Assembly (NCBI GenBank): GCA_964412195.1
Contig: CAYPNP010000003.1
Coordinates: 160,386 to 224,385, forward strand
Length of the DNA: 64,000 nucleotides
From: an uncultured Acidobacteriota bacterium
Lineage (GTDB): Bacteria; Acidobacteriota; JAAYUB01
Reading direction: 5' to 3'
Shown here piece after piece: positions 2,318 through 57,290 of this stretch; position 1 is the stretch's first letter, and each line of letters starts with the position of its first letter. The notes beneath the pieces were generated by a model, which made no database searches, had not been told where the DNA came from, and saw only the letters and a program-made list of their open reading frames with translations. A program made the position numbers and the translations under genes.

Positions 2318-2497
2318 TTTCAAGCTGAACATTGAACATCGAACATTGAACATCGAACATCGAAGGAAAACCCGCGGCAGCAGGGTTTGAACGGACGAAA
2401 ACAGTCTGGAACGGCGGGGTACTTGCTCCAGTCTTCGAATCACTGGATCTACTTCAAAGTTCGATGTTCAATGTTCGATGTTCAATGTTCGCTTTGA
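2318..2497. repeat. inverted pair of CGAACAT heptamer arrays flanking about 90-bp core (MITE-like or hairpin)
   Basis: 2318-2362 aacattgaacatcgaacattgaacatcgaacatcgaa is the reverse complement of 2452-2497 ttcgatgttcaatgttcgatgttcaatgttcg. Confidence 0.7.
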
Positions 2498-2541
2498 CGA
2501 TCTGACTATCCAGCAAAACTCTTCTCTGGGATAATGGCGCC

Positions 2542-3462
2542 ATGGAACTCTACGGCGCCATCGACATCGGGACCAACTCCATCAAGGGTGTGCTGTTGGC
2601 CCGCGACTCCGCCGGCGGCTGGCGGGTGGTGGACGACCGCGTGGAGATCGCCAAGCTGGGGCAGGGGGTCCGGGAGACCGGCTGCCTCCGGGCCGAGGCC
2701 ATGGACCGGGCCGCCGCCGCCGTGGGCCGGCTGGCCGACGTCCTGCGCAGGGCGGGGGCGGGCCGCCTGGTGGCGGTGGGCACCATGGCCCTGCGGAACG
2801 CCGCCAACGCAGGGGAATTTTTAGAGCGGCTCCGAGCGGAATGCGGCCTTGAAGTCGAGGTGGTGTCTGGCGAGGAGGAGGCACGCCTCTCCTTCCTGGG
2901 CGCCGCGGGGGGACGGCCCGGCGCCGGCGGGCCGGTGGCCGTGACGGACATCGGCGGCGGCAGCACCGAGTTGATCCTCGGCCGCGGCGCCGCCCTCGAA
3001 TCGAAGGCGAGCCTGGACCTCGGCGCCCTGCACCTCACCGAGCGGTTCCTGCCCTCGGACCCGCCCGCGGAGGCCGAGGTGGAGGCCGCCCGGGCGCACG
3101 TGGGCGAAGCAGTCGCCGGCTTGCCAGTCCCGCCGGAAAACTCGCTCCTGGTGGCCATCGGCGGCACGGCCACCACCCTGGCGGCGGTCGTCCACCGGCT
3201 GGCCGCGTACGACGCCGCGATCGTCCATGGTACCGTGCTGGCGCGGGCGACGGTCGACGGCCTGATCGAGCGGTTCCGGAGCGTTCCCCTGGCGATGCGG
3301 CGGACCATCCCGGGCCTGCCGCCGGAGCGGGCCGACATCATCCTGGCGGGCAGCCTGATCCTGCGCGGCGTGATGGACCGGGTCGGCGCCGGCGAGGTGA
3401 CGGTCAGCGACTGGGGCCTCCGGCACGGCGTCATCCTCGATCGCTATACCCCTGTCAGTTGA
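2542..3462 (+). CDS. Ppx/GppA-family phosphatase (exopolyphosphatase / pppGpp phosphohydrolase)
   Basis: N-terminal AIDIGTNSIK actin-like ATPase motif of the Ppx/GppA family; 306 aa. Confidence 0.8.
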   Translation: MELYGAIDIGTNSIKGVLLARDSAGGWRVVDDRVEIAKLGQGVRETGCLRAEAMDRAAAAVGRLADVLRRAGAGRLVAVGTMALRNAANAGEFLERLRAECGLEVEVVSGEEEARLSFLGAAGGRPGAGGPVAVTDIGGGSTELILGRGAALESKASLDLGALHLTERFLPSDPPAEAEVEAARAHVGEAVAGLPVPPENSLLVAIGGTATTLAAVVHRLAAYDAAIVHGTVLARATVDGLIERFRSVPLAMRRTIPGLPPERADIILAGSLILRGVMDRVGAGEVTVSDWGLRHGVILDRYTPVS

Positions 3463-3469
3463 GTCGAGG

Positions 3470-3600
3470 CAGATCTCAATTTCCAGAACGCAAACTATTT
3501 GTTATTGGATATTGATTATTTGTTATTTGTTATATCCGAATTGTTTTCCATAGATTGATATAACCAATAACAATTAATCAATAATCATTAACAAATCTTC
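3470..3600. repeat. AT-rich imperfect palindrome (TTGTTAT/ATTGATT repeats) at convergent gene junction; probable bidirectional terminator or MITE-like
   Basis: Arms ttgttattggatattgattatttgttatttgttatat and atataaccaataacaattaatcaataatcattaacaa are near reverse complements; about 25% GC inside a 68% GC genome. Confidence 0.55.
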
Positions 3601-3622
3601 TGCTGATCCCCATTCCCCCGGT

Positions 3623-5530
3623 TCAACCTTTCCCATCCACCCGGGCCTTCCGTTCCTCCAGGTATTCCCAGCGCTCGTACGCGGCGGCCAGTTCCGCTTC
3701 CAGGTCTTGCAGACGGGAGTTGAAGGCGGCGACATCCCGGTTGGCGGTGCGGTACAGACCGGGGTCGACCAAAGCCCGGCAGACGCGCTCCTTCTCCGCT
3801 TCCAGCTCGTGGATCCTGTCCGGCAGGGCTTCCAATTCCCGCTCTTCCTTGTAGCTCATCCTGTTGTCCGGCGGCCGGGATTTGGGAGGCGGTTTTTTCG
3901 CAGGCGGCTTTTCGGCCACGGTTTCGGAAGTGTCCCTCTGACGAAGCCAGTCGTCGTATCCGCCCACGTATTCCTCGATCTTCCCATCCCCGGCAAACAC
4001 CAGGGTGCTGGTCACCACATTGTTCAGGAACGCCCTGTCGTGGCTGACCAGCAGCAGGGTGCCTTCGAATTCGAGGAGCACCTCCTCCAGCAGTTCGAGG
4101 GTTTCGATGTCCAGATCGTTGGTCGGCTCGTCGAGCACCAGCACGTTGGCCGGCTGGGTGAACAGGCGGGCCAACAGCAAGCGGCACCGTTCCCCGCCGG
4201 AGAGGCTCTTCACCTTGGCCCGCGCCTGTTCCGCGGAAAAGAGGAATCGCTGCAGGTAGCCGATCACGTGCTGGCTCACCCCCCGGATCGTCACCGTGTC
4301 GTGGCCGCCGGCCACGTTGTCGAACACGGATTTCTCGCTGTCCAGTTGATTACGCAACTGGTCAAAGTAAAGGACTTCCAGGTTGACTCCATGGCGGACG
4401 CTCCCCTTCTGCGGCGCGAGGTCGCCCAGCAACAGGCGCAGCAGCGTGGTTTTTCCGCAGCCGTTGGGCCCGATGATGCCCACCCGGTCCCGGCGCAGGA
4501 TGGTGGCGGAAAAATCGCGGATCATGGGCTTGTCGGCGTACTGGTAGGAAATGTGCTCCGCCTCGATGACCAGCTTGCCGGATCGCTGTCCGGACTGCAT
4601 GGCCATCCTGACTTGGCCGGGACGCTCCTGCCGCTGCCGCCGCTGTTCCCTCATCTTCATCAGGGCCCGGACGCGGCCCTCGTTCCGGGTGCGGCGGGCC
4701 TTGATGCCCTGGCGGATCCATTCCTCCTCGATGGCCAGCTTCTTGTCGAAGAGCCGGTTCTGGCTCTCTTCCGCGGCCAGGCTTTCCTCCTTGCGCCGGA
4801 GGAAGGTGGCGTAATCGCACGGCCAGTCGAACAGCCGGCCCCGGTCGATTTCCACGATCCGGCTGGCCAGCTTCTGCACGAGCACCCGGTCGTGGGTCAC
4901 CATCACGAGGGTGCCGCCGTATTCCGCCAGGAAGCTCTCCAGCCAGGCGATTGCGTCAATGTCCAGGTGGTTGGTGGGTTCGTCGAGCAGGAGGATGTCC
5001 GGCCCTGAAACCAGGGCTTGGGCCAGCAGGGTGCGACGCTTCAGCCCGGTGGACAGGGTCGTGAATTCCGTGTCGGCCGGCAGCGTCATGCGGGCGATGA
5101 CCGTGTCGACGCGGCGGTGGATTTCCCACCCTTGCTCCGCGTCCAGCTGATGGCTGAGGCGTTCCAGGCGGGCCATCAGCTTAAGTTCATCCCCGCGGTG
5201 CTCCGCCAGCAGGGCGCTGGTCTGATGGTAATCGGCCAGGAGCCGGCCTTTGGCGGCGAGCCCGGAGGTGACGATGTCGAAGACAGTGCCGGCGGTGCCG
5301 GTGGGGATCTCCTGGTCCAGGCGGGCGGTGGTGACACCCTGCCCGCGGCTGACGCTGCCGCTGTCCGGGACGATCTCCCCGTGGATCAGCTTCAACAGCG
5401 TGGTCTTGCCGCTGCCGTTGCGCCCCAGCAAGCAGACCCGCTCGTGGCGTTCGATGTGCATTTGGACGTGGTCCAGCAGCAGATGGCCGCCGTAGCCGAT
5501 GCACGCGTCTTTCACGCTGATGAGCGCCAT
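3623..5530 (-). CDS. ABC-F family ATPase (Uup/EttA-like; two ABC cassettes plus C-terminal coiled coil)
   Basis: Two Walker A motifs (GRNGSGKTTLL, GPNGCGKTTLL) and two LSGGE signatures; basic coiled-coil C-terminus; start MALISVKD chosen downstream of the ORF-track start. Confidence 0.85.
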   Translation of the reverse strand: MALISVKDACIGYGGHLLLDHVQMHIERHERVCLLGRNGSGKTTLLKLIHGEIVPDSGSVSRGQGVTTARLDQEIPTGTAGTVFDIVTSGLAAKGRLLADYHQTSALLAEHRGDELKLMARLERLSHQLDAEQGWEIHRRVDTVIARMTLPADTEFTTLSTGLKRRTLLAQALVSGPDILLLDEPTNHLDIDAIAWLESFLAEYGGTLVMVTHDRVLVQKLASRIVEIDRGRLFDWPCDYATFLRRKEESLAAEESQNRLFDKKLAIEEEWIRQGIKARRTRNEGRVRALMKMREQRRQRQERPGQVRMAMQSGQRSGKLVIEAEHISYQYADKPMIRDFSATILRRDRVGIIGPNGCGKTTLLRLLLGDLAPQKGSVRHGVNLEVLYFDQLRNQLDSEKSVFDNVAGGHDTVTIRGVSQHVIGYLQRFLFSAEQARAKVKSLSGGERCRLLLARLFTQPANVLVLDEPTNDLDIETLELLEEVLLEFEGTLLLVSHDRAFLNNVVTSTLVFAGDGKIEEYVGGYDDWLRQRDTSETVAEKPPAKKPPPKSRPPDNRMSYKEERELEALPDRIHELEAEKERVCRALVDPGLYRTANRDVAAFNSRLQDLEAELAAAYERWEYLEERKARVDGKG

Positions 5531-6057
5531 CCTGGGTGCGTCCTTCCTGGTTGCTTCCGCCGGAGAGTTGTCCGGCTCGTCCCACCGGATCCTCCCCGGA
5601 TCGGCGTTCCCGGACAAGATAATGCATTCCCACCCCGGCGCCAACGGAAAAACAAAAGGCCGGGCCTCCTCCGCCGGAAATCGTTGTCTCCGCGGAGCCG
5701 GTGTCGGGATCAGACGGAGTTGTCCGGCCCGCTCCCGCCCTCGAGGCGACTCCAGCCTTGCGCCCCTCCCGGCCGGTCGGGGTACCTCCCGTGTGCCGGG
5801 GGCGGCGTTGTCGCCTTCGACGGAAATGGCGCCCGCGTCCGGGATTGACTCTGCGATCTCTACGTCTCTGCGTGAATATACTTCGGGGCTCGAAGCCGGG
5901 GGCTTGGGACTCGGCAGACGTTGACAAACAGTAGTGGGGTCGAGACCCGAGCACCGAATCCCGAGACCCGATTACGAGCACGATAACGATTACGAGCACG
6001 AGCACGAGGAGGATCGGTGGATTTCTTTTTTCGAGGGAGCTGGACGGGGAAAAAAAT

Positions 6058-6110
6058 AGCGGCCGGCTTTTCTATCCCCCCTATAGCATAGAAAGGCCGG
6101 CCGCCTTGAG
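6058..6110 (-). terminator. rho-independent terminator (17-bp perfect stem plus T-run) on minus strand
   Basis: GCGGCCGGCTTTTCTAT...ATAGAAAGGCCGGCCGC inverted repeat; minus-strand reading is followed by TTTTTTTCCCC. Confidence 0.5.
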
Positions 6111-6397
6111 AGTTGGGAGAATAATGGTACGCTATCATTTTTTCGGAGCGGGCCGGTCCTGGCAAGCGACAAAAAGCGACAATATGCGACACGGGGCGAA
6201 ACAGCCTGATATCAAATCAGATAGTGACTTGAAAAACCCGCCGAAATATCGCCGGCGGAATTGATTTTTTCAGTCCAGCAGGCCAATGGACGACCGCTTT
6301 GTTGGACGAGGTTCGCCCCCGATGAACAATTGGGGGATCCAAAGATGTTTCCAAGGGAAATTTGGGATTGCTTCCGCCGATCCACCGACTCACCTAT

Positions 6398-7315
6398 TCA
6401 CCGATTCACCGACAACATCTCCCGCAGCGCCGGCTCCAGCTCCGGCCAGCGGAAGGCGTAGCCGGATTCCAGCAGGCGGCGGGGGCGGACATGCGCCCCG
6501 CCCAGCAGGGCCTCGTCGGCCATCTCGCCGAACAGGAGCCGCAGGGCGAAGGCGGGCACCGGCAGGGCCGCCGGCCGGCGCAGCACCCGGGCGAGGGTCC
6601 GGGTCCATTTGGTGTTGTCGGGGATTTCCGGCGCCACGGCGTTGACCGGTCCGTCCATCCCTTCCTGGCGGATCAAGTGTAGCACGATGCGCGGGATTTC
6701 CTCGAGCGCGATCCAGGGGACGGGCTGTCGGCCGTCGCCGATCCGCCCGCCCAGCCCCAGGCGGAAGACCGGCAGCAGGCGTGCCAGCGCGCCGCCGGCC
6801 GGACTCAGCACCATGCCGAAGCGCAGGTGAATTACCCGGATACCTGCGTCCCGGGCCGGATCGGCGGCGGTTTCCCAGGCGCGGCAGACGCGGGACAGGA
6901 ATCCCTCGCCGGGACGGCTGCCCTCGTCGACAGGCTCCTCCGGCGGGCGGCTGCCATAATAGCCGACGGCGGAGGCGGTCAGGAACAGGCGCGGCGGTTC
7001 CCGGAGCCGGAGCAGTGCCTGGGTGAGGGTCTGGGTGCCGGCGACGCGGCTGTGGAGGATCTCGTCCTTGTACCGCGCGCTCCAGCGGCGGCCGGCGATG
7101 CCGGCGCCGGCGAGGTGGATCACCACGTCGGCACCTTCCAACCGGTCGGGCTCCAGCCGGCCCTGGCCGGGGTCCCATGGGATCTCGTCCTGGGCGGCGG
7201 TCTCGGCGGGGCGGCGCACCAGCTTCACGCAGTGGATAGCTGGATCGAGGCCCGGCAGTTCCCGGACGAGGCAGGAGCCGATCAGGCCGGACGCGCCCGA
7301 AATCACGATCCGCAT
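6398..7315 (-). CDS. TIGR01777/YfcH-family NAD-dependent epimerase/dehydratase-fold protein (DUF1731 C-terminus)
   Basis: MRIVISGASGLIGSCL Rossmann motif; YfcH-like length and C-terminal region. Confidence 0.75.
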   Translation of the reverse strand: MRIVISGASGLIGSCLVRELPGLDPAIHCVKLVRRPAETAAQDEIPWDPGQGRLEPDRLEGADVVIHLAGAGIAGRRWSARYKDEILHSRVAGTQTLTQALLRLREPPRLFLTASAVGYYGSRPPEEPVDEGSRPGEGFLSRVCRAWETAADPARDAGIRVIHLRFGMVLSPAGGALARLLPVFRLGLGGRIGDGRQPVPWIALEEIPRIVLHLIRQEGMDGPVNAVAPEIPDNTKWTRTLARVLRRPAALPVPAFALRLLFGEMADEALLGGAHVRPRRLLESGYAFRWPELEPALREMLSVNR

Positions 7316-7512
7316 GACGACCTCCGGCAATCAAACCGCGAAGGCACAAAGGCCGGATAGGCGAACCAAACGCTGAACGTCCAACGTCGAACTCAGAACG
7401 CCGAACAGGAAAAACCGAATCCTAGGCAACAGCCCGGATTGACTTCGACGATCAGCGTTCGATGTTCAATGCTTGACGTTCGGATCCCAGTTCCGGTCAA
7501 ACAGGCCGGCAA

Positions 7513-8907: not shown

Positions 8908-9035
8908 TTCTTCAATACTCTCCGTTCAATTCACACACTCGACCGGGACGGACATCGGAAATCGGATTTCGGACATCGGCCTTTTACAGCCGATCCCCGA
9001 TGTCCGAAGTCCGATGTCCGACAATCGTGCCCGGG

Positions 9036-11219: not shown

Positions 11220-11460
11220 TGCGGGCCGCGGCGTGCCCGGTAATTGATGCCCAATGACCGATGACCGGTGAACGATGACCGGCGACGGGCCATGCCGACT
11301 GCGAAATGGCATGCCTGCTTCATCGATATCGGAGTCGGTTTTCGCAGTCGATTCCAAGATCGGTTCCTGACGGCGATACCGATGCCTCCGGTCCCGAGCC
11401 CCCAGACCCGAGCCCCCAGATCCGATGTCCGACATCCGAATTCCGATGTCCGCACCGGTT
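11220..11460. repeat. intergenic heptamer arrays (CCGGTGA/CCGATGA family and CCGATGT/CCGAAGT family)
   Basis: ccaatgaccgatgaccggtgaacgatgaccggcgacggg and cccagatccgatgtccgacatccgaattccgatgtccg. Confidence 0.7.
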
Positions 11461-11505: not shown

Positions 11506-12789
11506 ATGGAACACGACGAGATCCTGCACTGGCTGACAGAGACCGGCGAAGCGGCGCTGGAGCAGCTCTGGCGCCGGGCCGACGAAGTCCGGCGCCGGCA
11601 CGTCGGCGACGCGGTCCACCTGCGCGGGCTGGTGGAGTTCTCCAACCACTGCGCCCGGCAGTGCGGGTACTGCGGCATCCGGGCCGGCAACACCCGGCTG
11701 GCGCGCTACCGGATGAGCGCCGACGAGATCCTGGAGTGCGCCCGGCTGGCCGCCCGGCTGGGCTACGGCACGGTCGTCCTGCAGTCCGGCGAGGACCCCG
11801 GCACCCGGCGCGCCTGGATGGCGGACGTGGTCCGGCGGATCCGCGCGGAAACGGGGCTGGCGGTGACGCTCAGCCTGGGTGAGCGCAGCGACGCCGACCT
11901 GCGGGCGTGGCGCGAGGCCGGCGCCGGCCGGTACCTCCTGCGGTTCGAGACCTCCAACCCGGTTCTCTTCCGGAAGATCCACCCGCCCCGGCGCGGCCGC
12001 GGGAGCGACCGGATCGCCCTGCTGCGTCGGTTGCGAGGCCTCGGCTACGAGGTCGGCAGCGGGGCCATGATCGGTATCCCCGGCCAGACGTACGGTGACC
12101 TCGCCCGGGACCTCGAGCTGTTCAGGGAGCTGGACCTGGACATGATCGGAGTCGGGCCGTTCCTCCCTCATCCTGCTACGCCTCTGGGTCAACCAGAGGA
12201 CGCGGGGACGGGGGGACGGGGAGACGGGGGGACGAGCCGGATCGAACATCGAACATCGAACATTGAACATCGAACATCGAACTCAATCCGCGATCCGCAC
12301 TCCGCAAACCGGGAACTCACCACAAAGGCACAAAGAACACAAAGACAAGATTGGGATTCCAATTCGAAATCCGCGATCCGCAATCCGAGATCCGATGTCC
12401 GAGATCCGATGTCCGAAGATCGCACTCCGCATTCCGCACTCCGCACTCCGCATGATTCCGAACAGGTTCCCAACTCGGAATTGATGACCTACAAGGTGGT
12501 GGCGCTGGCCCGGCTGATCTGTCCGGACGCCAACATCCCCAGCACCACGGCGCTGGCCACGGTCAACCGGGAGTCCGGACGCGAGCTGGGTCTGCAGCGG
12601 GGCGCCAATGTCGTCATGCCCAACCTGACGCCGCCGCGCTACCGGGCCGGTTACGAAATCTACCCGGCCAAGGCCTGCCTCCAGGAAACGCCGGAGCAAT
12701 GCCACGGCTGCCTGCTGGCGCGCATCGCGTCCATCGGCCGGACCGTGGGCGAGGGGCCGGGGGAGTCTCCCCGATTCAGGAAGCGGTGA
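11506..12789 (+). CDS. radical SAM protein of the HydE/BioB/ThiH family carrying an in-frame insertion of about 97 codons of heptamer-repeat origin (function may be disrupted)
   Basis: EFSNHCARQCGYCGIR CX3CX2C radical SAM motif; HydE-like C-terminus ICPDANIPSTTALAT...GANVVMPNLTP; start MEHDEIL chosen because the first 27 codons of the ORF lie in repeat DNA. Confidence 0.65.
   Translation: MEHDEILHWLTETGEAALEQLWRRADEVRRRHVGDAVHLRGLVEFSNHCARQCGYCGIRAGNTRLARYRMSADEILECARLAARLGYGTVVLQSGEDPGTRRAWMADVVRRIRAETGLAVTLSLGERSDADLRAWREAGAGRYLLRFETSNPVLFRKIHPPRRGRGSDRIALLRRLRGLGYEVGSGAMIGIPGQTYGDLARDLELFRELDLDMIGVGPFLPHPATPLGQPEDAGTGGRGDGGTSRIEHRTSNIEHRTSNSIRDPHSANRELTTKAQRTQRQDWDSNSKSAIRNPRSDVRDPMSEDRTPHSALRTPHDSEQVPNSELMTYKVVALARLICPDANIPSTTALATVNRESGRELGLQRGANVVMPNLTPPRYRAGYEIYPAKACLQETPEQCHGCLLARIASIGRTVGEGPGESPRFRKR
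12190..12480. repeat. intragenic repeat module: CGAACAT, CCGAGAT/CCGATGT, CACAAAG and CACTCCG heptamer arrays inserted in frame in the radical SAM gene
   Basis: atcgaacatcgaacatcgaacattgaacatcgaacatcgaac translates as IEHRTSNIEHRTSN; ccgagatccgatgtccgagatccgatgtccga; cgcactccgcattccgcactccgcactccgca. Confidence 0.8.
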
Positions 12790-12794
12790 GACAC

Positions 12795-12945
12795 TGGATC
12801 GTCTCTCTCGTGTGAATTGATTCAATTGCGGATTGCGGATTGCGAATTGAACGGATTGCGGATTTCGGATTGCGGATTGAAACCTAGGCTTGTCTTTGTG
12901 TCCTTTGTGCCTTCGTGGTGAGTTCCCGGCTTGCGGCTTGAGGTT
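12795..12945. repeat. GCGGATT heptamer array plus CTTTGTG array, inverted relative to the intragenic module
   Basis: ttgcggattgcggattgcgaattgaacggattgcggatttcggattgcggatt; 12893-12930 is the reverse complement of 12311-12350. Confidence 0.7.
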
Positions 12946-12950
12946 TTCCA

Positions 12951-13826
12951 GTGATCTGGCTGCCGCTGGCGCTTCTGTGCGCCTTCTCCCTGGCCACCAG
13001 CGACGCCCTGGTGAAGAAGTTGTTCCCGAGCCGGGACGCCGTCGCCGTGGCCTGGCTGCGCCTGTTGCCGGGGATTCCGCTGCTCTGGACCCTGGTGGCG
13101 CTGCATCGACCGCCGGTGCCCGGACCTGACTTCTACTGGGCCACCGCCCTCGCCGTGCCGCTGGACACCTTCGCGCTGGTCCTCTACATCCGGGCAATCC
13201 AGTCCTCGCCGCTGAGCCTGACCCTGCCGCTGCTCGCATTAACTCCGGCGCTGCTCCTGGTCATCCCCGCCGCGCTCCTGGGGGAACGGCTCTCTCCCGC
13301 CGGCGCCGCGGGCGTCCTGCTGATCAGCCTGGGCTGCTACGCCCTGAACATCGGCTCGGCCCGCTGCGGATTGCTCGAGCCGCTGCGGGCGCTGGCACGC
13401 GAGAAGGGCGCCCGGCTCATGCTGGCGGTGGCGGTGATCTACGGCTGCACCTCCACCCTGGGCAAGATCGGCGTCACCGCGGCCAGCCCGCTGCTCTTCG
13501 GCGCGGCCTACTTCACCGCCATGGGCGCGCTGGTGACGCCGTTCGCGCTGGCGGGAAGGCGGCGGGCCGCCCTGGCGGCGGTCCGGCAGGAGCTGGGGAC
13601 GTCGCGGGCGCTGCTACCCGGCCTGGCGTACGGCGCCATGATCGTGTTCCACATGTTGGCGCTGAGCCTGGCCCCGGTGGCCTACATGATCGCGGTCAAG
13701 CGGCTCAGCCTGCTGATCGGGGTCCTGTACGGCCGCTTCCTGTTCGGCGAGGGGCGCTTCCGCGAACGGATCGCCGGCGCGGTACTGATGCTCGCCGGCG
13801 TCCTGCTCATCGGCCTCTTCCCCTGA
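12951..13826 (+). CDS. EamA/DMT-superfamily transporter
   Basis: About 10 predicted transmembrane helices; duplicated EamA-like halves; GTG start. Confidence 0.7.
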   Translation: MIWLPLALLCAFSLATSDALVKKLFPSRDAVAVAWLRLLPGIPLLWTLVALHRPPVPGPDFYWATALAVPLDTFALVLYIRAIQSSPLSLTLPLLALTPALLLVIPAALLGERLSPAGAAGVLLISLGCYALNIGSARCGLLEPLRALAREKGARLMLAVAVIYGCTSTLGKIGVTAASPLLFGAAYFTAMGALVTPFALAGRRRAALAAVRQELGTSRALLPGLAYGAMIVFHMLALSLAPVAYMIAVKRLSLLIGVLYGRFLFGEGRFRERIAGAVLMLAGVLLIGLFP

Positions 13827-15236: not shown

Positions 15237-17333
15237 CTATCCTTCTCCGTCGATTTGAGTCGCCGGCGCCGCCGGAGTTCTTTCTCCGGGCGGATCCTCC
15301 AGGAGGTCGGAGGCAGGGACCGTCACCGTGACCACGGCCCCGCCGCCGGGCCGGTTGGCCAGGGCCAGCTGCCAGCCGTGGGCCTTCAAGATTTCCGCAC
15401 TCAGGCTCAGACCGAGCCCCGTCCCCTGGCGGCGCGTGGTGTAGAACGGTTCCAGGGCCCGCTGCAGCGCCTCGGGGGTGAACCCCGGCCCCGTGTCGGC
15501 CACCTCCAGACGCAGGCGGCTGTCTTCCCTCACCCACCCCAGGGTGATCTCGCCGCCGCCGTCGAGGTTGTCGATGGCGTTCTGAACGAGGTTGATCAGC
15601 ACCCGGAAGAGCTGGTCCTCGTCGGCTGAAAGTCGCAAGGAAACCTCCGCCGATTCCACCTGGAGGCGGATCCCGAGGCGTTCTGCAGTTTCGATGAACA
15701 TCGCCCGGACGCGCTCCAGCAGGGGCGGAAGCGCCACCGGCTCCCGGTGGAGCTGGACCGGCCGGGCGTAGATCAGGAGGTCCTCCACCAGCCGGTTGAG
15801 CCGGCGGGACTCCTCGTCCAGGACCGCCAGGGCGTTGCGGTTCCGCTCGTCCGCCACCGGATCCAGCCGCCGGCGCAACGTCTGCACCGACATGGAAAGG
15901 GCGTTGAGCGGGTTGCGGATCTCGTGGGCCACCGCCGCCACCAGCCGGCCGAGCGCCGCCAGGTGCTCCTCCCGGTGGCTTCTGTTTTCCAGCGCCTTCT
16001 GGCGGGTGACGTCCCGCAGCAGCAGCAGGCGCGCCGGCGGACCTCCGGGTTCTTCCGGGAACGCCTGGCAGCTGGCCAGGAAGAGCCGGTCCCGCCAGGA
16101 CAGGTAGACCGCCTCCGCCGGCGCCGCGGCGTCCTCCGACCGGCAGTCTTCCAAGGCGCCGGTCAGGGCGTGCGGCAGGGCGTCGCCGGCGCGGAGGCCC
16201 AGCTCGGACTCGGCCCGCGGGTTGGCCCGGAGGATGCGCCCGGTCTCATCGACCACCAGCAGGGACTCCACCATCCGCTGGGTGATCCGGTCGGACATGG
16301 ACAGGCTGCGGGCGTAGCGCGAGCGCAGGAACCGGTAGTTCTGGGCCGTGAAAATCAGGCCGAAGAGGATCCCGCCGCCGAGCAGGAGCGCCAGGCTCAT
16401 CCCGGCGTCCCGCCAGGCCAGCTCCCGCAGCCGGTCGTGGTAAAACGTGAGGTCCACGCCCACCCGGAACAGCGCCCGGTACCCCTCCTCCAGCTCGAAC
16501 GGCACCGCCCCTTCCAGCACCTCCCGGCCGCGATGGGTGGTGAAGCGGAAGGTCCGGCGGTTTTCGGCGAAAGCCTCGCGAAGCTCGGGCACGCTGCCGA
16601 TGGAGGCGACCTCCTCCACGCCCGGGGTGGCGCTGATGGGGCCGTCCTCGTCCTGGATGACCGCGTAGACGATGGAAGGGTTGCCGGCCAGGCGGGCCAG
16701 GGCCGGGCCCAGGCCGACCCGCTGCCGGTAGCGGTCGAGCTGCTCCGCCGGGGCAGTCACGACGATGGCGCCACCGCCCGGCCGCGCCACGGCGACGGCG
16801 AACCGGCGGCCTCCTCCGAACCGGGCTTCGCGAAAACCGATGACCAGGTCCGGGACGGTCCCGTCCAGGATGGGGCCGAGGATGTTCCGCCGCTCGGCCG
16901 TTTCCTCGCCGGATCCCGCGGGCGGGGGATCTCCGCTGGACAGGACGCGTCGGCCGTCCCGGTCGAAGAGATGAATCCGCTGGAGGTCGAACCGGGCCGC
17001 GACCGCTCCCAGCCGGGAGGCGGACAGGGGGCCTTCCCCGTCGAGGTGGGCGACGAAGCGGGCGGAAGCGAGCAGCCGGCGGGCGATCTCTTCCTGCAGC
17101 GCGTCGTAGGCGCCCAGGGAGGCCGTGGCGCTTTGGATCAGGGGCTCGGTCAGAACGGCCACGTTGTCCTGGAGGAGCCGCCGCAGTTCCCGCTCCGTGT
17201 TGCGGTAGTCGGAATACCCGTTCCAGGCCAGCAGCAGGGCGAGCGCCAGAAGGCCGGCCGAGGGGAGGATCCACCCGGCCGGGCGGGAGCCGTTCCCCCG
17301 CGGCGTCAGTGGGCGCTGGGTTCGGGCTGCCAT
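15237..17333 (-). CDS. sensor histidine kinase with about 290-aa periplasmic domain, PAS, HisKA and HATPase_c
   Basis: H-box AHEIRNPLN; N and G boxes (LVQNAIDN, GTGLGLS); two transmembrane segments; start MAARTQRPL is uncertain and the ORF-track start at 17960 is rejected. Confidence 0.75.
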   Translation of the reverse strand: MAARTQRPLTPRGNGSRPAGWILPSAGLLALALLLAWNGYSDYRNTERELRRLLQDNVAVLTEPLIQSATASLGAYDALQEEIARRLLASARFVAHLDGEGPLSASRLGAVAARFDLQRIHLFDRDGRRVLSSGDPPPAGSGEETAERRNILGPILDGTVPDLVIGFREARFGGGRRFAVAVARPGGGAIVVTAPAEQLDRYRQRVGLGPALARLAGNPSIVYAVIQDEDGPISATPGVEEVASIGSVPELREAFAENRRTFRFTTHRGREVLEGAVPFELEEGYRALFRVGVDLTFYHDRLRELAWRDAGMSLALLLGGGILFGLIFTAQNYRFLRSRYARSLSMSDRITQRMVESLLVVDETGRILRANPRAESELGLRAGDALPHALTGALEDCRSEDAAAPAEAVYLSWRDRLFLASCQAFPEEPGGPPARLLLLRDVTRQKALENRSHREEHLAALGRLVAAVAHEIRNPLNALSMSVQTLRRRLDPVADERNRNALAVLDEESRRLNRLVEDLLIYARPVQLHREPVALPPLLERVRAMFIETAERLGIRLQVESAEVSLRLSADEDQLFRVLINLVQNAIDNLDGGGEITLGWVREDSRLRLEVADTGPGFTPEALQRALEPFYTTRRQGTGLGLSLSAEILKAHGWQLALANRPGGGAVVTVTVPASDLLEDPPGERTPAAPATQIDGEG

Positions 17334-19691: not shown

Positions 19692-19840
19692 GCGCGCTGA
19701 CGCAGCGGAACACTTCAGCCACGGTTCTCAAAACCCCGTCCTTCCGGACGGGGTTTTCTTATTGCGAGAGAATGCCGAATCGAAAAAAAAAGGCTTGCAA
19801 TATTCTGAGCATATGCTCATAATAAGGTCCGGAGGTTGCG

Positions 19841-40157: not shown

Positions 40158-40235
40158 GGCGGTCCCCTACCCGCAATTGGGGTTGAATCCCCAGTGGAAT
40201 TCCCGTATACTTCCGTCGATTTCGGCGAGGTGACC

Positions 40236-41310: not shown

Positions 41311-41317
41311 TCTCAAT

Positions 41318-41490
41318 CAATTGCGGATTGCGGATTGCGGATTGAGGATTGAACCGCAAACCGCGCAAAGGATGCAAAGCGGAATTCAACGCTGATCCAC
41401 GCAGATTGATTATGATCTGATATGATCATTTAACAGGTTTGGATCATAAAGATCATAAAATATCCGCGTGAATCTGCGTTGAATGAGATC
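41318..41490 (+). mobile_element. composite MITE-like dispersed element, copy 1: GCGGATT array, CAAAG-rich segment, about 100-bp AT-rich core with terminal inverted repeats
   Basis: Core ttcaacgctgatccacgcagattgattatgat...ggatcataaagatcataaaatatccgcgtgaatctgcgttgaat is homologous over its whole length to 55441-55545 (second copy, opposite orientation). Confidence 0.75.
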
Positions 41491-41570
41491 CGGATGGAAG
41501 ATGGGGAACGGCGGGATCCGCGACCGGGTCCCGGGGGTGTTCGACGACTTTCAGGGCGGTGGCAGCGGTC

Positions 41571-42548: not shown

Positions 42549-42882
42549 GGCGTGCTCCTAATGAAGGCCGAAAGATAATTCCACGGGAAAAGCCAACAAC
42601 CCCGCGTGGATGAAAAAGAATAATGGCGGCAACTTGTTCTCATCGTATTCTTCTGGACCGAGGATTTCAACCGGGGAAAATCAAAGAAATTCCCGGGTGG
42701 ATCGAAGGAGGAGGAGGGGAACGAGATCCGGGCCGCCGGTCGAATGAAAAATGCCGTTCCAGTTCCGGCGGACCCGGAATATGGGCGGGCGGACTTGGGA
42801 ACGAGTGTGGAAATCTCCCTGAACGCGTTGGATCTGGAATTGATCGTAGAACCCGTCAAGCCCGCAAGTGTCTGAATTCCGA

Positions 42883-43863
42883 TCAGGGTATGTTGCACAT
42901 GATCCGCGTTATTCCTTCTTCGAAATTTGTACAGTTGAGGAGATAACAGTAAGCCAGCCAAGCAGATCCGTCCTCATCCCGATAGAGATAGAATGCATCG
43001 CTTGTGAGGCGGGCCTGGGACCAGATAAATGAATATCTGGCGAGCAGACTTTCATCGACTCCATCAACGTTTAAGACAACTCCATAGGCGTACTTGTGGA
43101 GTTCAACAGTACTGCTCATGTTATGTGTCCTGATTTCCGAGTAGAACAACCGGACTTGCGCACCATGATATGCACCCTGAGCCTCCAGATAAACGCCCGC
43201 CACCGAATTATCGAGATCCTCCGGGGCGTCACTGCCCCCGGCATAGATGTAAGATCCGTTAATATCGATGTAACTCGTTCCCAATGAGTATATTGCAGCC
43301 CCGAAAGTGACGGAGCTGGATAAGGAGACGTCGCAATTCTCGATGCGGACAGTCGAGCTCAAAACATACACGGCCGCCGTGTTGGTCGTCCCTCCGGAGT
43401 CTTTTTGCAAGCTGAGATCCTCGATCGCGCTGTCGGTGGTGCTGTTCAACACGACGATGGCTCCAAAGGGCGGGCTCGGCGCGCCCCCGGTACGGATGAT
43501 GACCGTGTTCTTTCTCCCGTATCCCCGCAAGGTGGTGTAGCTCGGAAGCCAGACGGCCCGGGTCAGCAAGTATCCGCCGGGCGCCACAAGGATAACGAAG
43601 CGATGGGTGGCGGAGGGGGACTGCGCCGCCACCCAGTCGGCGGCGTCGGCGGGATTGGTGAAGTCGCCGCCCTGGGGCGCGACGACCACGACGTTCTCGA
43701 GGTTGAACTCGGAGGCGTCGAGGTTGCCGGCCAGGATGTTGGCGAGGCAGACGCTGTCGGCGGCGTTTACGGCCCGGTCGGCGTTGACGTCGGCCCGGTT
43801 GCCCGCCGCCGCCGGGCAGACGCAGAGCGGCAGCAAGGCGAGCAGGAACAGTGCATTTTTCAT
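42883..43863 (-). CDS. secreted beta-helix-like protein with N-terminal dockerin-like repeat, paralog 2
   Basis: Same N-terminal module; about 95% nucleotide identity to paralog 1 over about 110 bp; RBS AGGAGC; the ORF-track start at 43983 is rejected. Confidence 0.55.
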   Translation of the reverse strand: MKNALFLLALLPLCVCPAAAGNRADVNADRAVNAADSVCLANILAGNLDASEFNLENVVVVAPQGGDFTNPADAADWVAAQSPSATHRFVILVAPGGYLLTRAVWLPSYTTLRGYGRKNTVIIRTGGAPSPPFGAIVVLNSTTDSAIEDLSLQKDSGGTTNTAAVYVLSSTVRIENCDVSLSSSVTFGAAIYSLGTSYIDINGSYIYAGGSDAPEDLDNSVAGVYLEAQGAYHGAQVRLFYSEIRTHNMSSTVELHKYAYGVVLNVDGVDESLLARYSFIWSQARLTSDAFYLYRDEDGSAWLAYCYLLNCTNFEEGITRIMCNIP

Positions 43864-44165
43864 AGGGTGCTCCTTGACAGCCCGATGACCCCATTGCCGG
43901 GACCGGAAGTTGCCGGACCCGCAAGAGGTGGGTAGATATGGAAAACTTGGTTCCATTGTGGCCCCGTGGAGCGGCGATTGCAACAGGGGATAATCACAGA
44001 TTCTCAGGGAGGGATCAAAGGTGGCGGGACGCGGGGGATATGATCTTCAGGAGAAATGGAAACCCGTACCGGGGCGGGCCGGCCCGGACTACGGGAAGGT
44101 TGGATTCGGTGAACCGGCGGGGCTGTTGTATAATCGAAACGTTTTGATCCTGCGCGGGATGCCGG

Positions 44166-50792: not shown

Positions 50793-51448
50793 TGCGCAGG
50801 AAGACTCTTACCCTATGGCGGACGGTGTGGCTGGCGGCCCTGCTGGCGGCGGGCGGTGGCGCGGCGGGCGCGGCCGGGCTGTCGCTGCGGGACCGGGTCG
50901 TGGCCGACGTGGCGGGGGAGCCCGTCACCCTCCGCCAGGTGCTCATCCTGGCCAGCCTGGAAGCCGGCCGGAAGGTCGACCCGTCGGAAGGGGGGCTCGT
51001 GGCGGCCGCGGTCCAGCGGGAGATCACCCAGGTCATCATCATGCGGGACATCGCCCGGAATCCGTCCTACGAGGAGGAGAAACCCGACGAGGCCGCGATG
51101 CGGCAAGCCCTCGAGCAGAAGTGCGGCGGGCCGGAGGCATTGCGCCGGCTGCAGGAGGAGCTCCAGCTGAAAGACGAGACGCTCGAGAGCTTCCTGCAGC
51201 GGCAGGCCCTGGCGGTCGCCTTTGTCCGGCTGCATTTCAATCCGTTCGTCTATGTGTCCGAGGAGGAGGCCCGGAAATACTATGCGGAGGTGTTCCTGCC
51301 CCGCCTCGGCGCCGGCGCCGCGCCGCCGGACTTTGAGAGCGTGCAGGCGAAAATCGTGGAGATCCTGCAGCAGCGCAAGATCAACGCCGAGTTCGACCAG
51401 TGGCTGGAGCGGCAGAGGAAGGAACTTCGAGTCAAGATCATTGAATGA
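50792..51448 (+). CDS. periplasmic protein downstream of bamA (SurA-N/Skp-like chaperone?)
   Basis: ATGA overlap with the bamA stop; signal peptide; helical; position equivalent to skp in Omp85 operons. Confidence 0.45.
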   Translation: MRRKTLTLWRTVWLAALLAAGGGAAGAAGLSLRDRVVADVAGEPVTLRQVLILASLEAGRKVDPSEGGLVAAAVQREITQVIIMRDIARNPSYEEEKPDEAAMRQALEQKCGGPEALRRLQEELQLKDETLESFLQRQALAVAFVRLHFNPFVYVSEEEARKYYAEVFLPRLGAGAAPPDFESVQAKIVEILQQRKINAEFDQWLERQRKELRVKIIE

Positions 51449-51560
51449 TTGCGAATTTCGAATTGCGAATTGCGGATTGTGGATTGCGGATTGCGGATTT
51501 TAAATTTCAAATCCTCAAACTCTTTTTCTCTGAATCCACCCCGTCCACCCGTCCACCCCG
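51449..51560. repeat. GCGAATT/GCGGATT heptamer array plus CCACCCG array
   Basis: tgcgaatttcgaattgcgaattgcggattgtggattgcggattgcggatt; ccaccccgtccacccgtccaccccgtccactctgtccacccggtcc. Confidence 0.75.
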
Positions 51561-51587
51561 TCCACTCTGTCCACCCGGTCCTCCGCT

Positions 51588-55439: not shown

Positions 55440-55630
55440 CCATTCAACGCAGATCCACGCTGATCTATTATGATTAATTAGGATCATTTAAAAGGTCTGG
55501 ATCATAAATGATCTTAAAAAGTCTGCGTCCATCTGCGTCGAATTCCCCTTTGCGTCCTTCGCGCCTTTGCGGTTCGATTCGAAATTCGCAATTCGCAATC
55601 CGCAATCCGCAATCCGCAATCCGCAATCCC
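55440..55630 (-). mobile_element. composite MITE-like dispersed element, copy 2 (inverted relative to copy 1)
   Basis: ttcaacgcagatccacgctgatctattatgattaattaggatcatttaaaaggtctggatcataaatgatcttaaaaagtctgcgtccatctgcgtcgaat followed by cgcaatccgcaatccgcaatccgcaatcc. Confidence 0.75.
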
Positions 55631-55633
55631 CAA

Positions 55634-56785
55634 TCAGAGGGAGCGCTCTAAAATCTCTGCCAATTCAGCCGGGGTCAGCGCCACCGGATTGCCCTGCATG
55701 CTGCTGGCCACCCGGGCGCGGTCCACCAGCGTGGGGATGTCGGTGGCGGTGACTCCGTAGGAGCGCAGGGGCGGGATCCGCAGGTCCCGGCACAGGCCGT
55801 CCACCCAGGCGATGGCCTTGGCGGCGCCGGGCGCCTGGCCGGTCAGGAGCCGGCCGAGCGAATCCATCCGGCGCAAGGCGTCGCTGCCGGGATCCCGCTC
55901 CCGCAGCGCCCGGTGGTTGGCTTCCAGCACCCGCGGCAGCAGCCGGGCGCACGCGGCGCCGTGGGGCGCCGGAAACATGCCGCCGAGGGGCGCCGCCAGG
56001 CCGTGCACCGCCCCCAGCCGGGCGTTGGCCAGGGCCATCCCGCCCTCGAGGCTCGCCAGGGAGAGGTCCTCGCGGGCGGCCGCGTCGTAACCGTCGAGGC
56101 AGGCGCGGCGCAGGCTGCGGGACACCCGGGGGATGCCGTCGCGGCACAGCCCGTCGACGAGCGGATTGGGGCGGTTGCAGAGGAACGGCTCCACCAGTTG
56201 AGTCAGGGCGTCTAGGCCGGTGCTGGCGGTGATCTCCGGGGGCAGGCCGTAGGTCAGTTCGGGGTCCACCAGGGCCACCCGGGGCAGCATCAGCGGGCTG
56301 CGCAGGCTGACCTTGACTTTGTGCTCCGGCGAGGCAAGCACGGCGTTGCGGGTGGCTTCCGATCCGGTGCCAGCGGTGGTCGGGACGGCAATCAGGGGAA
56401 CGGATGGCTTGACCAGCGGCCGGCCCTGGCCGACGACTTCGAGATACTCGAGCGGATCGCCGCCGTTGGCCAGCAGGGCCGCGACCGCTTTGGCCGTGTC
56501 CAGCGCGCTGCCGCCGCCGAAGCCGATGACCAGGTCGGTCCCTTCCGCGTCGGCCTGCGCCAGCGCCGTCCGGACCGTGTTCACCGACGGCTCGCCGGCG
56601 GACGAGAACACGGCGGCGGGCAGGCCGGCCTCCCGGAGCAGGGCCAGGAGCCGGCCGGCCCGGTCCGGCGAGGCGCCCGTGACCACCAGCGGCTTCCGCC
56701 CGAGGGAAGCGGCCAGCGGCCCGATTTCCTTCAAAGAGCCGGCCCCGAACAGGATCCGTTGCGCGGTGGCGAATTCGAATGGCAT
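55634..56785 (-). CDS. iron-containing (group III) alcohol dehydrogenase
   Basis: GGGSALDTAK NAD-binding motif; conserved His metal ligands; 383 aa. Confidence 0.85.
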   Translation of the reverse strand: MPFEFATAQRILFGAGSLKEIGPLAASLGRKPLVVTGASPDRAGRLLALLREAGLPAAVFSSAGEPSVNTVRTALAQADAEGTDLVIGFGGGSALDTAKAVAALLANGGDPLEYLEVVGQGRPLVKPSVPLIAVPTTAGTGSEATRNAVLASPEHKVKVSLRSPLMLPRVALVDPELTYGLPPEITASTGLDALTQLVEPFLCNRPNPLVDGLCRDGIPRVSRSLRRACLDGYDAAAREDLSLASLEGGMALANARLGAVHGLAAPLGGMFPAPHGAACARLLPRVLEANHRALRERDPGSDALRRMDSLGRLLTGQAPGAAKAIAWVDGLCRDLRIPPLRSYGVTATDIPTLVDRARVASSMQGNPVALTPAELAEILERSL

Positions 56786-56786
56786 G

Positions 56787-57098
56787 TTACCCCCAGCCGG
56801 CGTCGTCCGGAAACACGTTGGCGTATTTCACACTGGTGCGCGGCTCGGCCATCATCCCGGCCACGGCGTCGCGCCAGGCGGGATAGTGGGCCGTCTCCTT
56901 GTGGCGGGCGGCGTCCTCTGGGGTGCGGTAGACCTCCACCAGCAGGAAGCGGGCCGGGTCGCCGGCCTGCTGCAGCACGTCGAACCGGGCCACCCCCGGC
57001 TCGCGGCGGCTGGCCCGCGCGTTGGCCAGGGTGGCCTCGCAAAAGGCGTCGATGCTGTCGGCTTTCACGTGGACATTAACCATGACGATGAACATCAT
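56787..57098 (-). CDS. ABM-domain (antibiotic biosynthesis monooxygenase / quinol monooxygenase-like) protein
   Basis: 103-aa ferredoxin-like fold pattern [14 protein letters not shown]...[23 protein letters not shown]. Confidence 0.65.
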
Positions 57099-57099
57099 G

Positions 57100-57290
57100 C
57101 CTCCTCGGACCGGTGACGGATGACCGGTGACCGATCATGCTCACTCAAAAATAGAGAGCTTTCAACCAGCTTCGTGCTCGTGCTCGTATGGTACTCGTAA
57201 TCGTACTCGGGCCCGACGATCTGATCGATGACCGTTGACCGGTCACCCGTCATCCGTCATCGGTCATCTGTCACCGGTCCGGTTTCCCCA
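57100..57290. repeat. CCGGTGA/CCGATGA arrays (inverted pair) flanking a CGTGCTC/CGTAATC array
   Basis: ggtgacggatgaccggtgaccgatc ... cgtgctcgtgctcgtatggtactcgtaatcgtactcg ... gaccggtcacccgtcatccgtcatcggtcatctgtcaccggtcc. Confidence 0.75.

Follow-up and report, generated by a model that had tools for sequence, protein, structure and literature searches.

The DNA considered here is a 64-kb window (65% G+C) of a contig from an uncultured Acidobacteriota bacterium, and its intergenic DNA carries tandem arrays of 7-nt units, most of which are the arms of imperfect inverted repeats. The arrays are genuine and striking, and they belong to a known, unexplained kind: bacterial heptanucleotide arrays have been on record since 1990, and we know of no explanation so far for the period of 7, or for any role of such arrays. 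What is new is an example of the class in an Acidobacteriota-like lineage. The arms are 24-65 nt long, 71-97% complementary and 8-110 nt apart (one pair spans 519 nt), the 5' arm is predominantly the G-rich one, and arrays frequently begin at or just past stop codons. The best explanation as a whole, to which we would give an even chance, is that these are heptamer arrays of the class of the cyanobacterial short tandemly repeated repetitive (STRR) sequences and the long simple sequence repeats (SSRs), shaped by slippage, inverted copying, selection on sites and a strand filter.

Tandem Repeats Finder reported 133 rows for the window, a large share of them at period 7 or its multiples 14 and 21. 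A strict census by lag self-match (at least 4 units, at least 85%), with block shuffles as controls, found 16 arrays at period 7, two each at periods 6 and 8 and a single one at period 14. Periods 4, 5, 9-13 and 15 yielded none, and neither did the shuffles yield any. A looser lag-7 census (at least 3 units, at least 11 of 14 lag matches) found 31 arrays, against 4.8±2.2 in block shuffles. The first-pass annotation of this DNA, which had proposed heptanucleotide arrays from the letters of the sequence, had left it to a repeat finder whether period 7 is enriched; repeat finder and lag census both uphold the enrichment, and Tandem Repeats Finder places period-7 (or 14/21) arrays at almost every coordinate proposed there (Table 1). 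The 16 strict arrays in 64 kb compare with 7 in 976 kb of a control set of 58 RelA loci from other phyla. The units are tandem, head-to-tail and present in at least 3-4 copies, which is what defines heptanucleotide SSR or STRR-type arrays, and the excess of period 7, the non-coding bias, the dispersal of units and the variation of loci between relatives are likewise characteristics of that class. Dispersal is seen for ATTGCGG at 5-6 loci of the window, and for the CGGACAT type and CCCGAGC at 4-5 loci each.

On a gene map built from codon statistics and then corrected from synteny and Pfam, 10.4% of intergenic bases (994 of 9,573) and 0.4% of coding bases (230 of 54,427) belong to period-7 arrays; a single block within hydE holds 164 of those 230 coding bases. 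The claim that arrays occupy nearly all intergenic regions was too broad: among the 38 regions of at least 50 bp, 16 contain a strict period-7 array and ~21 any short-period array. By type, the array-bearing regions comprise 5 of 5 convergent, 3-4 of 5 divergent and ~11 of 28 co-directional ones. The exclusion from coding sequence was described as strict, and the depletion is indeed strong, but the strictness does not hold, as arrays touch or contain a stop codon at 28712, 51446, 55634 and 57271. Tandem Repeats Finder assigns three of the ten proposed heptanucleotide families to periods other than 7: CGTAATC/CGTGCTC proves to be the hexamer TCGTAA (period 6/12/18), CACAAAG repeats every 8-9 nt, and CCACCCG has period 9/17, the TCCACCCCG array being of period 9. 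Nor are the families all separate. GCGGATT, CCGATGT and CACTCCG share one register as TCCG-N3 at 12370-12447, where TCCG recurs at exact 7-nt spacing, and CGAACAT and CGGACAT are one substitution apart. The argument that 7 is not a multiple of 3, so that coding DNA tolerates units only in threes, fits the hydE block, which is built from groups of three units; it does not explain the period, because periods 4, 5, 8 and 10 are equally out of frame and yet rare even in non-coding DNA.

Two further sets were defined by scans for (ATTGCGR)3: a metagenome set of at least 120 stretches, with 80 loci (41-73% G+C) among the matches listed, and a viral set of 72 stretches in IMG/VR viral contigs. For inverted heptamer pairs with at most 300 nt between them, taken from the window, the RelA loci and the metagenome loci together, the 5' arm has more G than C in 87 pairs and more C than G in 7 (p~1e-18). 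Without the seed family the G-first count is 42 versus 7, in the viral set it is 39 versus 6, and all sets together give 126 versus 13. A hairpin is identical when read from either strand, and the G-first polarity is therefore an intrinsic 5'-to-3' property. In the window, all five intergenic ATTGCGG-family arrays are sense-oriented and lie no more than 35 nt past a stop codon, and three (28712, 51446 and 55634) overlap the A of TGA or come directly after it. Starts 0-6 nt past a stop, in the sense orientation, are seen for (ATTGCGG)n in the window, in a Bacteroidales contig and in viral contigs. Of the 57 (ATTGCGR) arrays of at least 3 units in the metagenome loci listed, 12 begin no more than 5 nt past the stop of a long open reading frame (ORF) on the same strand and none in antisense, while arrays within 10 nt of a stop in the viral set number 24 sense versus 5 antisense. 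For other units beside stops, 60 cases are informative (2 ties excluded), and in 45 of them the G-rich strand is the sense strand, a count that spurious ORFs may inflate; inside coding regions, array orientation is confounded by long spurious antisense ORFs in GC-rich DNA. The neighbors of the arrays are housekeeping genes, such as uvrA, relA, rpmB, a permease gene and methyltransferase genes.

Heptamer arrays reach far beyond the window. The metagenome loci contain 68 non-seed strict period-7 arrays in 653 kb, with 14 at period 8 and 6 at period 9, a peak at 7 with a small shoulder at 8-9 that the loci of the relatives show as well. This non-seed period-7 density is ~15 times that of the control loci, and being rich in heptamers therefore characterizes entire genomes rather than single loci. 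Locus L121 (41% G+C) is from Bacteroidales, its M48 peptidase being 85% identical to a named Bacteroidales protein, and its ATTGCGG array begins 4 nt past a stop codon. In the viral contigs L234 (62% GC; 479-7176) and L229, (GATTGCG)n arrays of up to ~22 units occupy the short stretches between co-directional genes, from the stop codon nearly to the next start codon. Other purine-rich units, e.g. GAAGGCT, are placed like (GATTGCG)n in IMG/VR contigs.

How stable are the arrays between related genomes? By the RelA/SpoT protein (36478-38643, minus strand), the closest relatives are three Acidobacteriota metagenome-assembled genomes (MAGs) from anaerobic digesters, L003-L005, with 71-72% identity, all other proteins being at 51% or lower. 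Gene order is conserved between them and 25.4-51.4 kb of the window, and they carry heptamer arrays as well; L003 and L005 are 87% identical to each other at the nucleotide level, and L004 is unusable as a close comparison because its array regions are N runs. In the window, a single hairpin element makes up the entire 138-nt convergent gap between relA and rpmB; in the relatives the element is absent and the gap measures ~16-20 nt. The gap between relA and the glycosyltransferase gene measures 338 nt in the window versus 112 nt in the relatives. At the 3' end of uvrA, an array begins at or in the stop codon in each of the three genomes compared, its unit being ATTGCGA in the window and GGAGTTA/GGAGATA in L003 and L005. 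Next comes, in all three, a TCGTAA-type array, which unlike the heptamer units is conserved at this position. In the relatives, arrays of the TCGTAA type have 6-, 7- or 13-nt periodicity (L003 ~19100-19210, L005 ~19670-19760, L185 3735-3775). The relatives also possess a nested block in a convergent region. Its outer arms are (AGTGAAC)n and (GTTCACT)n, its inner arms are (GGAGATA)n and (TATCTCC)n, and in the middle stand (GGGAGAC)n and then (AACCCCG)n, both unpaired. Between L003 and L005 the unit order of this block is kept and the copy number is not: GGGAGAC has ~3 versus 17 copies, and the paired GGAGATA and TATCTCC have 6-8 versus 3 and 3, the two arms having shifted together. Over the divergence of related species, then, arrays appear, disappear, alter in length and give way to other units, and the two arms of a pair tend to vary in concert. 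A ~400-nt insertion in the nested block of L005 (15950-16340), absent from L003, contains its own long inverted repeat (GCGCCTGGCTATT...AATAGCCAGGCGC); it is perhaps a small mobile element distinct from the block.

The coding exception is the ORF at 11506-12789, which encodes a HydE-type radical-SAM maturase. As the first-pass annotation had predicted for a single intragenic exception, its array block is in frame and stop-free with units grouped in threes. The modules of the block are (GGACGGGG)4, (ATCGAAC)6, (CACAAAGR)3 and an 84-nt in-phase TCCG-N3 run, and together they make an insert of ~255 nt (~85 aa) between GVGPFLPHPATPLG and QVPNSELMTYK, with the C-rich strand as sense. Three heptamers are 21 nt, or 7 codons, and the arrays therefore read as heptapeptide repeats; (ATCGAAC)6 translates as IEHRTSNIEHRTSN, with heptapeptides including IEHRTSN. 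The HydE homologues P0001-P0004 (72-83% identity), which come from close relatives, and P0021, a protein of a Sumerlaeota MAG, have inserts of varied length in the same loop, among them NPQSAIR repeats that correspond to (AATCCGC)3, whereas most HydE proteins (~350 aa) have no insert. The block just past the hydE stop, at 12822-12943, is complementary to 12295-12387 within the coding block (arms of 65 nt at 85% and 31 nt at 84%). This pairing of an internal with a downstream block is found in both the window and L186, although the paired hydE module differs (CACAAAGR three times in the window versus GGAACTCAG twice in L186), and in L185 the corresponding hairpin lies entirely downstream of hydE. 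Because these arms flank ~330 nt of essential hydE coding sequence, a single insertion is excluded and templated copying between nearby sequences is possible. The TCCG run at 12370-12447 is best taken as a local observation, given the weak enrichment of a GGA/CGGA core. Long spurious ORFs cross stop-free C-rich arrays opposite real genes, e.g. 12283-13239 on the minus strand; such antisense ORFs could be called genes and could seed false repeat proteins in databases, while HydE is an example of arrays that are readable as heptapeptide repeats in a real protein.

Several observations bear on how the two arms of a pair stay alike. Unit variants occur in mirrored order in the two arms, as with a lone GCGGAAT that stands third in both arms of the pair at 25149/25291. 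In a unit-order shuffle test on 121 informative pairs, shuffling reduced the match between arms (mean z 1.3), and 20 pairs fell at or below the 5% level versus ~6 expected; arm lengths correlate weakly (r=0.23, p=0.005). Mismatches between arms, read on the sense transcript, comprise 20 of the G.U type, 18 of the A.C type and 41 others. There is no excess of G.U, so that the complementarity looks like the product of a DNA-level process or of recent copying and not of selection on RNA pairing, and the lack of a wobble signature argues against strong selection of that sort.

The slippage-based explanation could then run as follows. Units would be gained and lost by replication slippage, with an optimum near 7-8 nt, and intramolecular template switching (quasi-palindrome correction) would duplicate whole arms as inverted copies and keep the two similar, giving nested, hairpin-capable blocks. 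Purifying selection would leave such blocks at harmless sites, which are past stop codons, between convergent genes and between divergent promoters, and in one tolerant loop of HydE only in-frame, stop-free versions would survive. A strand-specific filter would set the G-first polarity. One candidate for it is the avoidance of exposed C-rich, Rho-accessible RNA, as the C-rich arm would pair upon emerging if the G-rich arm comes first; another is a transcription-linked expansion bias with the G-rich strand as non-template. Where the blocks are transcribed, the predicted effect is likely that of 3' stem-loops like those of repetitive extragenic palindromic (REP) elements and of a barrier or insulator at gene ends, and sequence-specific regulation by the arrays is less likely. 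Several points weigh against this explanation. The mirrored-order signal is moderate and not universal, and template switching is inferred from such patterns. Slippage alone leaves unexplained the recurrence of ATTGCGG in a Bacteroidales contig of 41% GC, in contigs that range from 41 to 73% GC, and in viral contigs (72 stretches), as well as the keeping of a TCGTAA-type array past uvrA in three species. A symmetric DNA-level process predicts a polarity of 50:50, which makes the strand filter an added assumption, and that polarity has exceptions, mostly AT-rich units such as CCATTTG.

What else might explain the arrays? The main rival reading, which we regard as unlikely, is that they are platforms for a protein with a 7-nt footprint, on mRNA or DNA, at gene 3' ends or between genes; candidates would be cold-shock-domain, CsrA-like or HutP-like proteins on mRNA and, as with the omega heptads of Inc18 plasmids, ribbon-helix-helix proteins on DNA. 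A sense-strand bias and abutment on stop codons are expected of an RNA-level site, and the identical unit across phyla and viral contigs, the single 7-nt register of TCCG across three supposed families at 12370-12447, the TCGTAA-type array kept past uvrA in three species and the L234 arrays that fill co-directional gaps and end just 5' of start codons all point the same way; binding of S1, Csp or CsrA was proposed by MacGregor for TAACTGA repeats (PMC4679880). It is difficult to reconcile one footprint, however, with the at least four unrelated unit types of the window (N3-CGGA, CCATTTG/TTATTTG, CACAAAG and TCGTAA), with the swapping of units at orthologous sites, or with the lack of a conserved core across loci, where the GGA columns are as variable as others in non-seed arrays and the GGA/CGGA enrichment has z~2. 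One pair, moreover, occupies a presumably untranscribed spacer between two -35 boxes, and no candidate protein is linked to the arrays. A more specific form of this reading, which we consider quite improbable, is a transcript-polar signal across phyla: G-rich heptads past stops, e.g. (AUUGCGG)n, would load a conserved single-strand RNA-binding protein with a 7-nt footprint (of the cold-shock-domain type or similar) and couple translation termination to RNA fate or Rho access. If true, such a platform would jointly explain the 7-nt period, the 126:13 polarity, the stop abutment and the recurrence of units across phyla, and also why phages of such hosts carry arrays.

Rather unlikely, too, is that the blocks are non-autonomous mobile elements, similar to miniature inverted-repeat transposable elements (MITEs) or to the REP-doublet hairpins called REPINs, with repeat-rich terminal inverted repeats and intergenic insertion. 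Blocks present in the window are missing in relatives at two sites, a ~190-nt composite exists in two copies, termini like GAATTCACCAC...GTGGTGAATTC recur, and viral contigs carry arrays. No target-site duplication was found, however, at the two insertion sites compared with relatives, the copies differ in length and module content with only one element type present as two similar copies, the hydE arms stand ~330 nt of essential coding sequence apart and thus beyond one insertion, and copy-number change in collinear blocks fits slippage better; nor was a linked transposase seen in the window, where no systematic transposase search was made. The MITE reading may apply to the composite elements of ~130-190 nt, but it does not explain the arrays themselves. 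That the inverted pairs act as transcription terminators or attenuators we judge very unlikely, although many of them lie just past stop codons, all five convergent regions of at least 50 bp bear arrays, and the T-rich arm at 36343-36476 could lengthen the U tract of a real terminator. The first-pass proposal of cruciforms or terminators is borne out insofar as long hairpins are possible: each of the 15 inverted pairs that were folded forms one, with z-scores of -2.7 to -12.8 against dinucleotide shuffles. It fails for intrinsic terminators, which have a short GC-rich stem, a loop of 3-8 nt and then a U tract, as the loops here measure 8-110 nt and no U tract follows the stems. Recombination between dispersed arrays, another first-pass suggestion, was not seen, although no test was aimed at it. 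A terminator scan gave no excess over shuffles, its strong hits being separate hairpins (2288-2311, 33981-34003 and 34659-34684), and one pair sits past a canonical terminator (in 2263-2541) and another between divergent promoters (38709-38891). Contingency loci, in which copy number would switch neighboring genes by phase variation, are highly improbable: copy number does vary between related genomes, and a 7-bp repeat controls hmw expression in Haemophilus (PMC12721329), but the arrays here follow stop codons, whereas a contingency repeat would lie in a promoter spacer, with the -35 box on one side and the -10 box on the other, or in the 5' coding region of a surface or virulence gene. The genes next to the arrays are housekeeping genes, and Rehm et al. 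concluded likewise for Xanthomonas (PMC4692102). Finally, sequencing or assembly artefacts, which the first-pass annotation had raised against itself, are almost certainly not the explanation. Short-read contigs do tend to end in arrays, and one MAG has N runs there; however, two independent Logan assemblies (runs SRR12489243 and SRR12489244) are 100% identical over 36982-42157, three arrays included base for base, and the same architecture recurs in other MAGs, in at least 120 metagenome stretches and in 72 viral stretches. Across independent Logan assemblies no copy-number polymorphism was seen, the contigs being identical or ending inside an array.

Where do the arrays stand among known systems? 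The cyanobacterial STRR sequences of Calothrix and Nostoc comprise several heptanucleotide families per genome, intergenic and dispersed, and the TGACCAA of some metagenome loci is identical to STRR2; unlike STRR sequences, the window arrays are from another phylum and have other units. REPs are fixed palindromes of 20-40 nt mobilized by REP-associated tyrosine transposases (RAYTs). The window arrays are like REPs, REPINs and bacterial interspersed mosaic elements (BIMEs) in being dispersed intergenic hairpin repeats, often 3' untranslated, but their arms are variable tandem arrays. The omega (ribbon-helix-helix) repressor of Inc18 plasmids binds 7-10 contiguous 7-bp heptads, WATCACW, direct or inverted, with one dimer on each; unlike the window arrays, these heptads are confined to three promoters of a single plasmid and do not follow stop codons, and by inspection WATCACW is matched by no reported array consensus unit.

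A close resemblance is to Xanthomonas, in which GGGAATC arrays of 2-26 units occur at 186 loci, ~90% intergenic, with 70-75 convergent inverted pairs (PMC4692102). They lie a mean of 28 nt from the upstream ORF and are G-rich on the coding strand downstream; no common function unites the genes beside them, related species differ in array length and sequence, and the arrays were interpreted as G-quadruplexes (G4) (PMC4692102). Like these and the GGGGA(C/T)T repeats of Nostoc (Rehm et al. 2015), the window arrays are intergenic heptamers near the upstream ORF, G-rich on the coding strand and arranged as convergent inverted pairs. Unlike them, with one unit type per genome and a G4 reading, the window has several unit types, mostly without G tracts: ATTGCGG, CGGACAT, GCGGAGT, GGTGACC and GAACATC have at most 2 consecutive G, and only GGGGCTC and GGACGGGG satisfy the G4 definition of at least 4 runs of at least 3 G. 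Most units therefore cannot form G4, the shared architecture is independent of G4 formation, and the G4 explanation offered for Xanthomonas fails for most of the units studied here. A Xanthomonas-type architecture thus holds without G4-capable units across at least 2 phyla plus viral contigs; nested multi-unit hairpins and an in-frame block such as that in hydE are found here and are not described for Xanthomonas (PMC4692102). Heptanucleotides are the most abundant class of long SSRs, non-coding and with slippage proposed (Mrazek, Guo and Shah 2007, as summarised in PMC4679880), and that summary is at survey level and does not cover inverted pairs, polarity or stop abutment. In Geobacter metallireducens, 4-5 tandem heptanucleotides are found as GGACCGG at 49 sites and as MTYCTGA at 15, many in inverted pairs, and regulator binding sites were proposed (Aklujkar et al. 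2009, PMC2700814); these elements, unlike the window arrays, have a set number of copies, 4 or 5, and one consensus for each class, and some are intragenic. The TAACTGA direct repeats of Beggiatoaceae, Cyanobacteria and Bacteroidetes are intergenic and gene-oriented, with an RNA-binding protein proposed (PMC4679880). They share with the present case an identical heptamer in distant phyla, but they lie mostly just 5' of start codons, with one indirect repeat in 170 sets (PMC4679880). Borg tandem repeats evolve fast and yield disordered repeat peptides inside genes (PMC9879509), which is comparable to the hydE block, but they have longer units, in multiples of three within genes, and belong to archaeal extrachromosomal elements.

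The individual arrays are collected in Table 1. The composite hairpin at 1530-1712 is similar to 21093-21262. A composite element of ~190 nt is present in two copies of opposite orientation, 41311-41500 matching the reverse of 55444-55633. Its parts are (ATTGCGG)n, (CGCAAAGG)n and a hairpin whose arms repeat ACGCWGATCC every 10 nt on either side of an AT-rich GATCAT palindrome, and both copies begin 0-9 nt past a stop codon. Termini resembling GAATTCACCAC...GTGGTGAATTC occur at 1530-1712, 12311/12930 and 36343-36476 and in the relative L185. As a loose pattern, the terminal motif TGTGGTGAAT has 30 matches in place of 30 expected, and thus no enrichment; meaning attaches only to the near-exact matches (0-1 mismatches) that stand at element ends. 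The promoters predicted for the window fall outside the arrays.

Table 1. Arrays and inverted pairs of the window, with z-scores for the folded pairs, and the array coordinates confirmed by Tandem Repeats Finder
Feature	Coordinates	Strand	Remarks
(CGAAACGG)4	1483-1517		precedes the 1530-1712 hairpin
Composite hairpin	1530-1712		outer CACAGAG-type arms, inner CCATTTG/CATTGG arrays; z=-5.0
Inverted pair (GAACATY)6 / (RATGTTC)6	2320-2497		72-nt spacer; 3' of canonical terminator 2288-2311 and 5' of the next gene's -10 box; z=-12.8
AT-rich pair (TTATTTG/TTATTGG)n / (CAATAAC)n	3490-3603		convergent genes; z=-8.1
(CGAGACC)4, then hexamer array (ACGAGC/CGATTA)n	5941-6008		
Degenerate inverted pair, GAACRTC family	7369-7480		z=-2.9
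Pair (CGGA-N3)4 / (TCCG-N3)4	8949-9023		8-nt spacer, co-directional genes; z=-9.1
Unpaired arrays (GATGACC)5, (CCCGAGCCCCCAGA)2.4, (CCGATGT)4.6	11246-11452		upstream of hydE
In-frame, stop-free, array-only block in hydE-like radical-SAM gene	12198-12455	+	
(ATTGCGG)~8, then (CTTTGTG)3 and GTGGTGAG	12822-12943		35 nt past hydE stop; z=-11.2
Pair (CCATTTG/TCATTTG)n / (CAAATGR)n	21093-21245		convergent genes; C-rich arm first (rare); z=-7.9
(GGTGACG)4.6, then hexamer (TCGTAA)2.5	23535-23609		divergent intergenic region
Pair (CTCGGGR)n / (CCCGAGC)n	23773-23909		end adjoins candidate -10 box TAGAAT of the downstream gene (by eye; not reported by the promoter scan); z=-5.1
Pair (GCGGAGT)4.6 / (GCACTCC)4.4	25149-25325		97% complementary; between methyltransferase gene stop and uvrA promoter; z=-10.5
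(ATTGCGA)3.6	28712-28738	+	begins within uvrA stop codon (TGATTGCGA...)
Hexamer array (ATCGTA)7.7 and (ACGCAGAG)3.2	28770-28858		
Pair (CGGACCT)4.4 / (GATGTCC)5.3	35912-36037		z=-2.7
Hairpin element, arms ATTCACCAC(AAAGR)3 / (CTTTGKG)3GTGGTGAAT	36343-36476		occupies the entire convergent rpmB/relA gap; encloses canonical bidirectional terminator 36373-36408; z=-7.8
Pair (GGGRCTC)n / (CCCGAGY)n	38709-38891		exactly between two divergent -35 boxes, of relA and the glycosyltransferase gene; z=-7.0
(ATTGCGG)4.6, then hairpin with 35-nt arms	41317-41500		9 nt past stop codon; z=-7.2
(ATTGCGR)7.4, then 9-nt array (TCCACCCCG)5.3	51446-51581		begins in stop codon TGA
Second, reversed copy of the ~190-nt composite element, with (AATCCGC)7.6	55444-55637		(AATCCGC)7.6 adjoins the stop of a minus-strand iron-containing alcohol dehydrogenase (Fe-ADH) gene; z=-4.7
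Pair (GGTGACC/GATGACC)n / (GGTCAYC)n	57106-57281		loop holds the hexamer array (TCGTRC)n (57172-57209); right arm extends into the end of the permease gene; z=-6.6
Confirmed arrays, first part	2327-2364, 2453-2491, 8949-9021, 11246-11282, 11421-11452, 12241-12282, 12365-12453		Tandem Repeats Finder
Confirmed arrays, second part	12825-12879, 21111-21227, 23535-23566, 23777-23909, 25153-25184, 25291-25321, 28714-28738		Tandem Repeats Finder
Confirmed arrays, third part	35917-36035, 38716-38885, 41320-41351, 51448-51499, 55583-55635, 57108-57279		Tandem Repeats Finder

Other assignments gave no match. The window has no match in Rfam 15 at gathering thresholds, and a search for the ATTGCGG array sequence found no paper in the library covered. 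A CRISPR (clustered regularly interspaced short palindromic repeat) array was rejected, as the units are 7 nt and contiguous versus repeats of 23-50 nt with unique spacers of similar length. That the arrays generally serve to provide stop codons in all three frames was rejected too, because neither strand of the commonest unit, ATTGCGG, contains a stop triplet.

The arrays have practical consequences in that they break short-read assemblies and coincide with N gaps in at least one MAG. One Logan contig ends 32 nt past the Fe-ADH gene, within the (ATTGCGG)n array (end of L184), and the N runs of the MAG locus L004, at 15579-15678 and ~18527-18626, stand exactly at the array-rich intergenic regions of its relatives. 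The hexamer array TCGTAA/TCGTGC occurs at five loci of the window (323-367, 5969-6008, 23595-23609, 28770-28817 and 57172-57209). A motif of ~40 nt, CCC..GCCGGTCGGGGTACCTCC..TGCCGG, has 4 copies (0.7 expected), at 31-47(-), 223-239(+), 5773-5789(+) and 23694-23710(+), all in array-rich intergenic regions of the window, and none in the 258 fetched loci. The region 58000-61000 has 57-60% GC versus 65%, and the 700-aa minus-strand ORF within it (58782-60884), whose flanks are without arrays, has atypical codon usage and was possibly acquired horizontally. Two segments, 41571-44165 and 28900-29615, are missing from the syntenic regions of L003-L005; one has lower GC and two minus-strand ORFs, and the other contains a small gene pair (29054-29499) that, judged by eye, may be a toxin-antitoxin system of the HicAB type.

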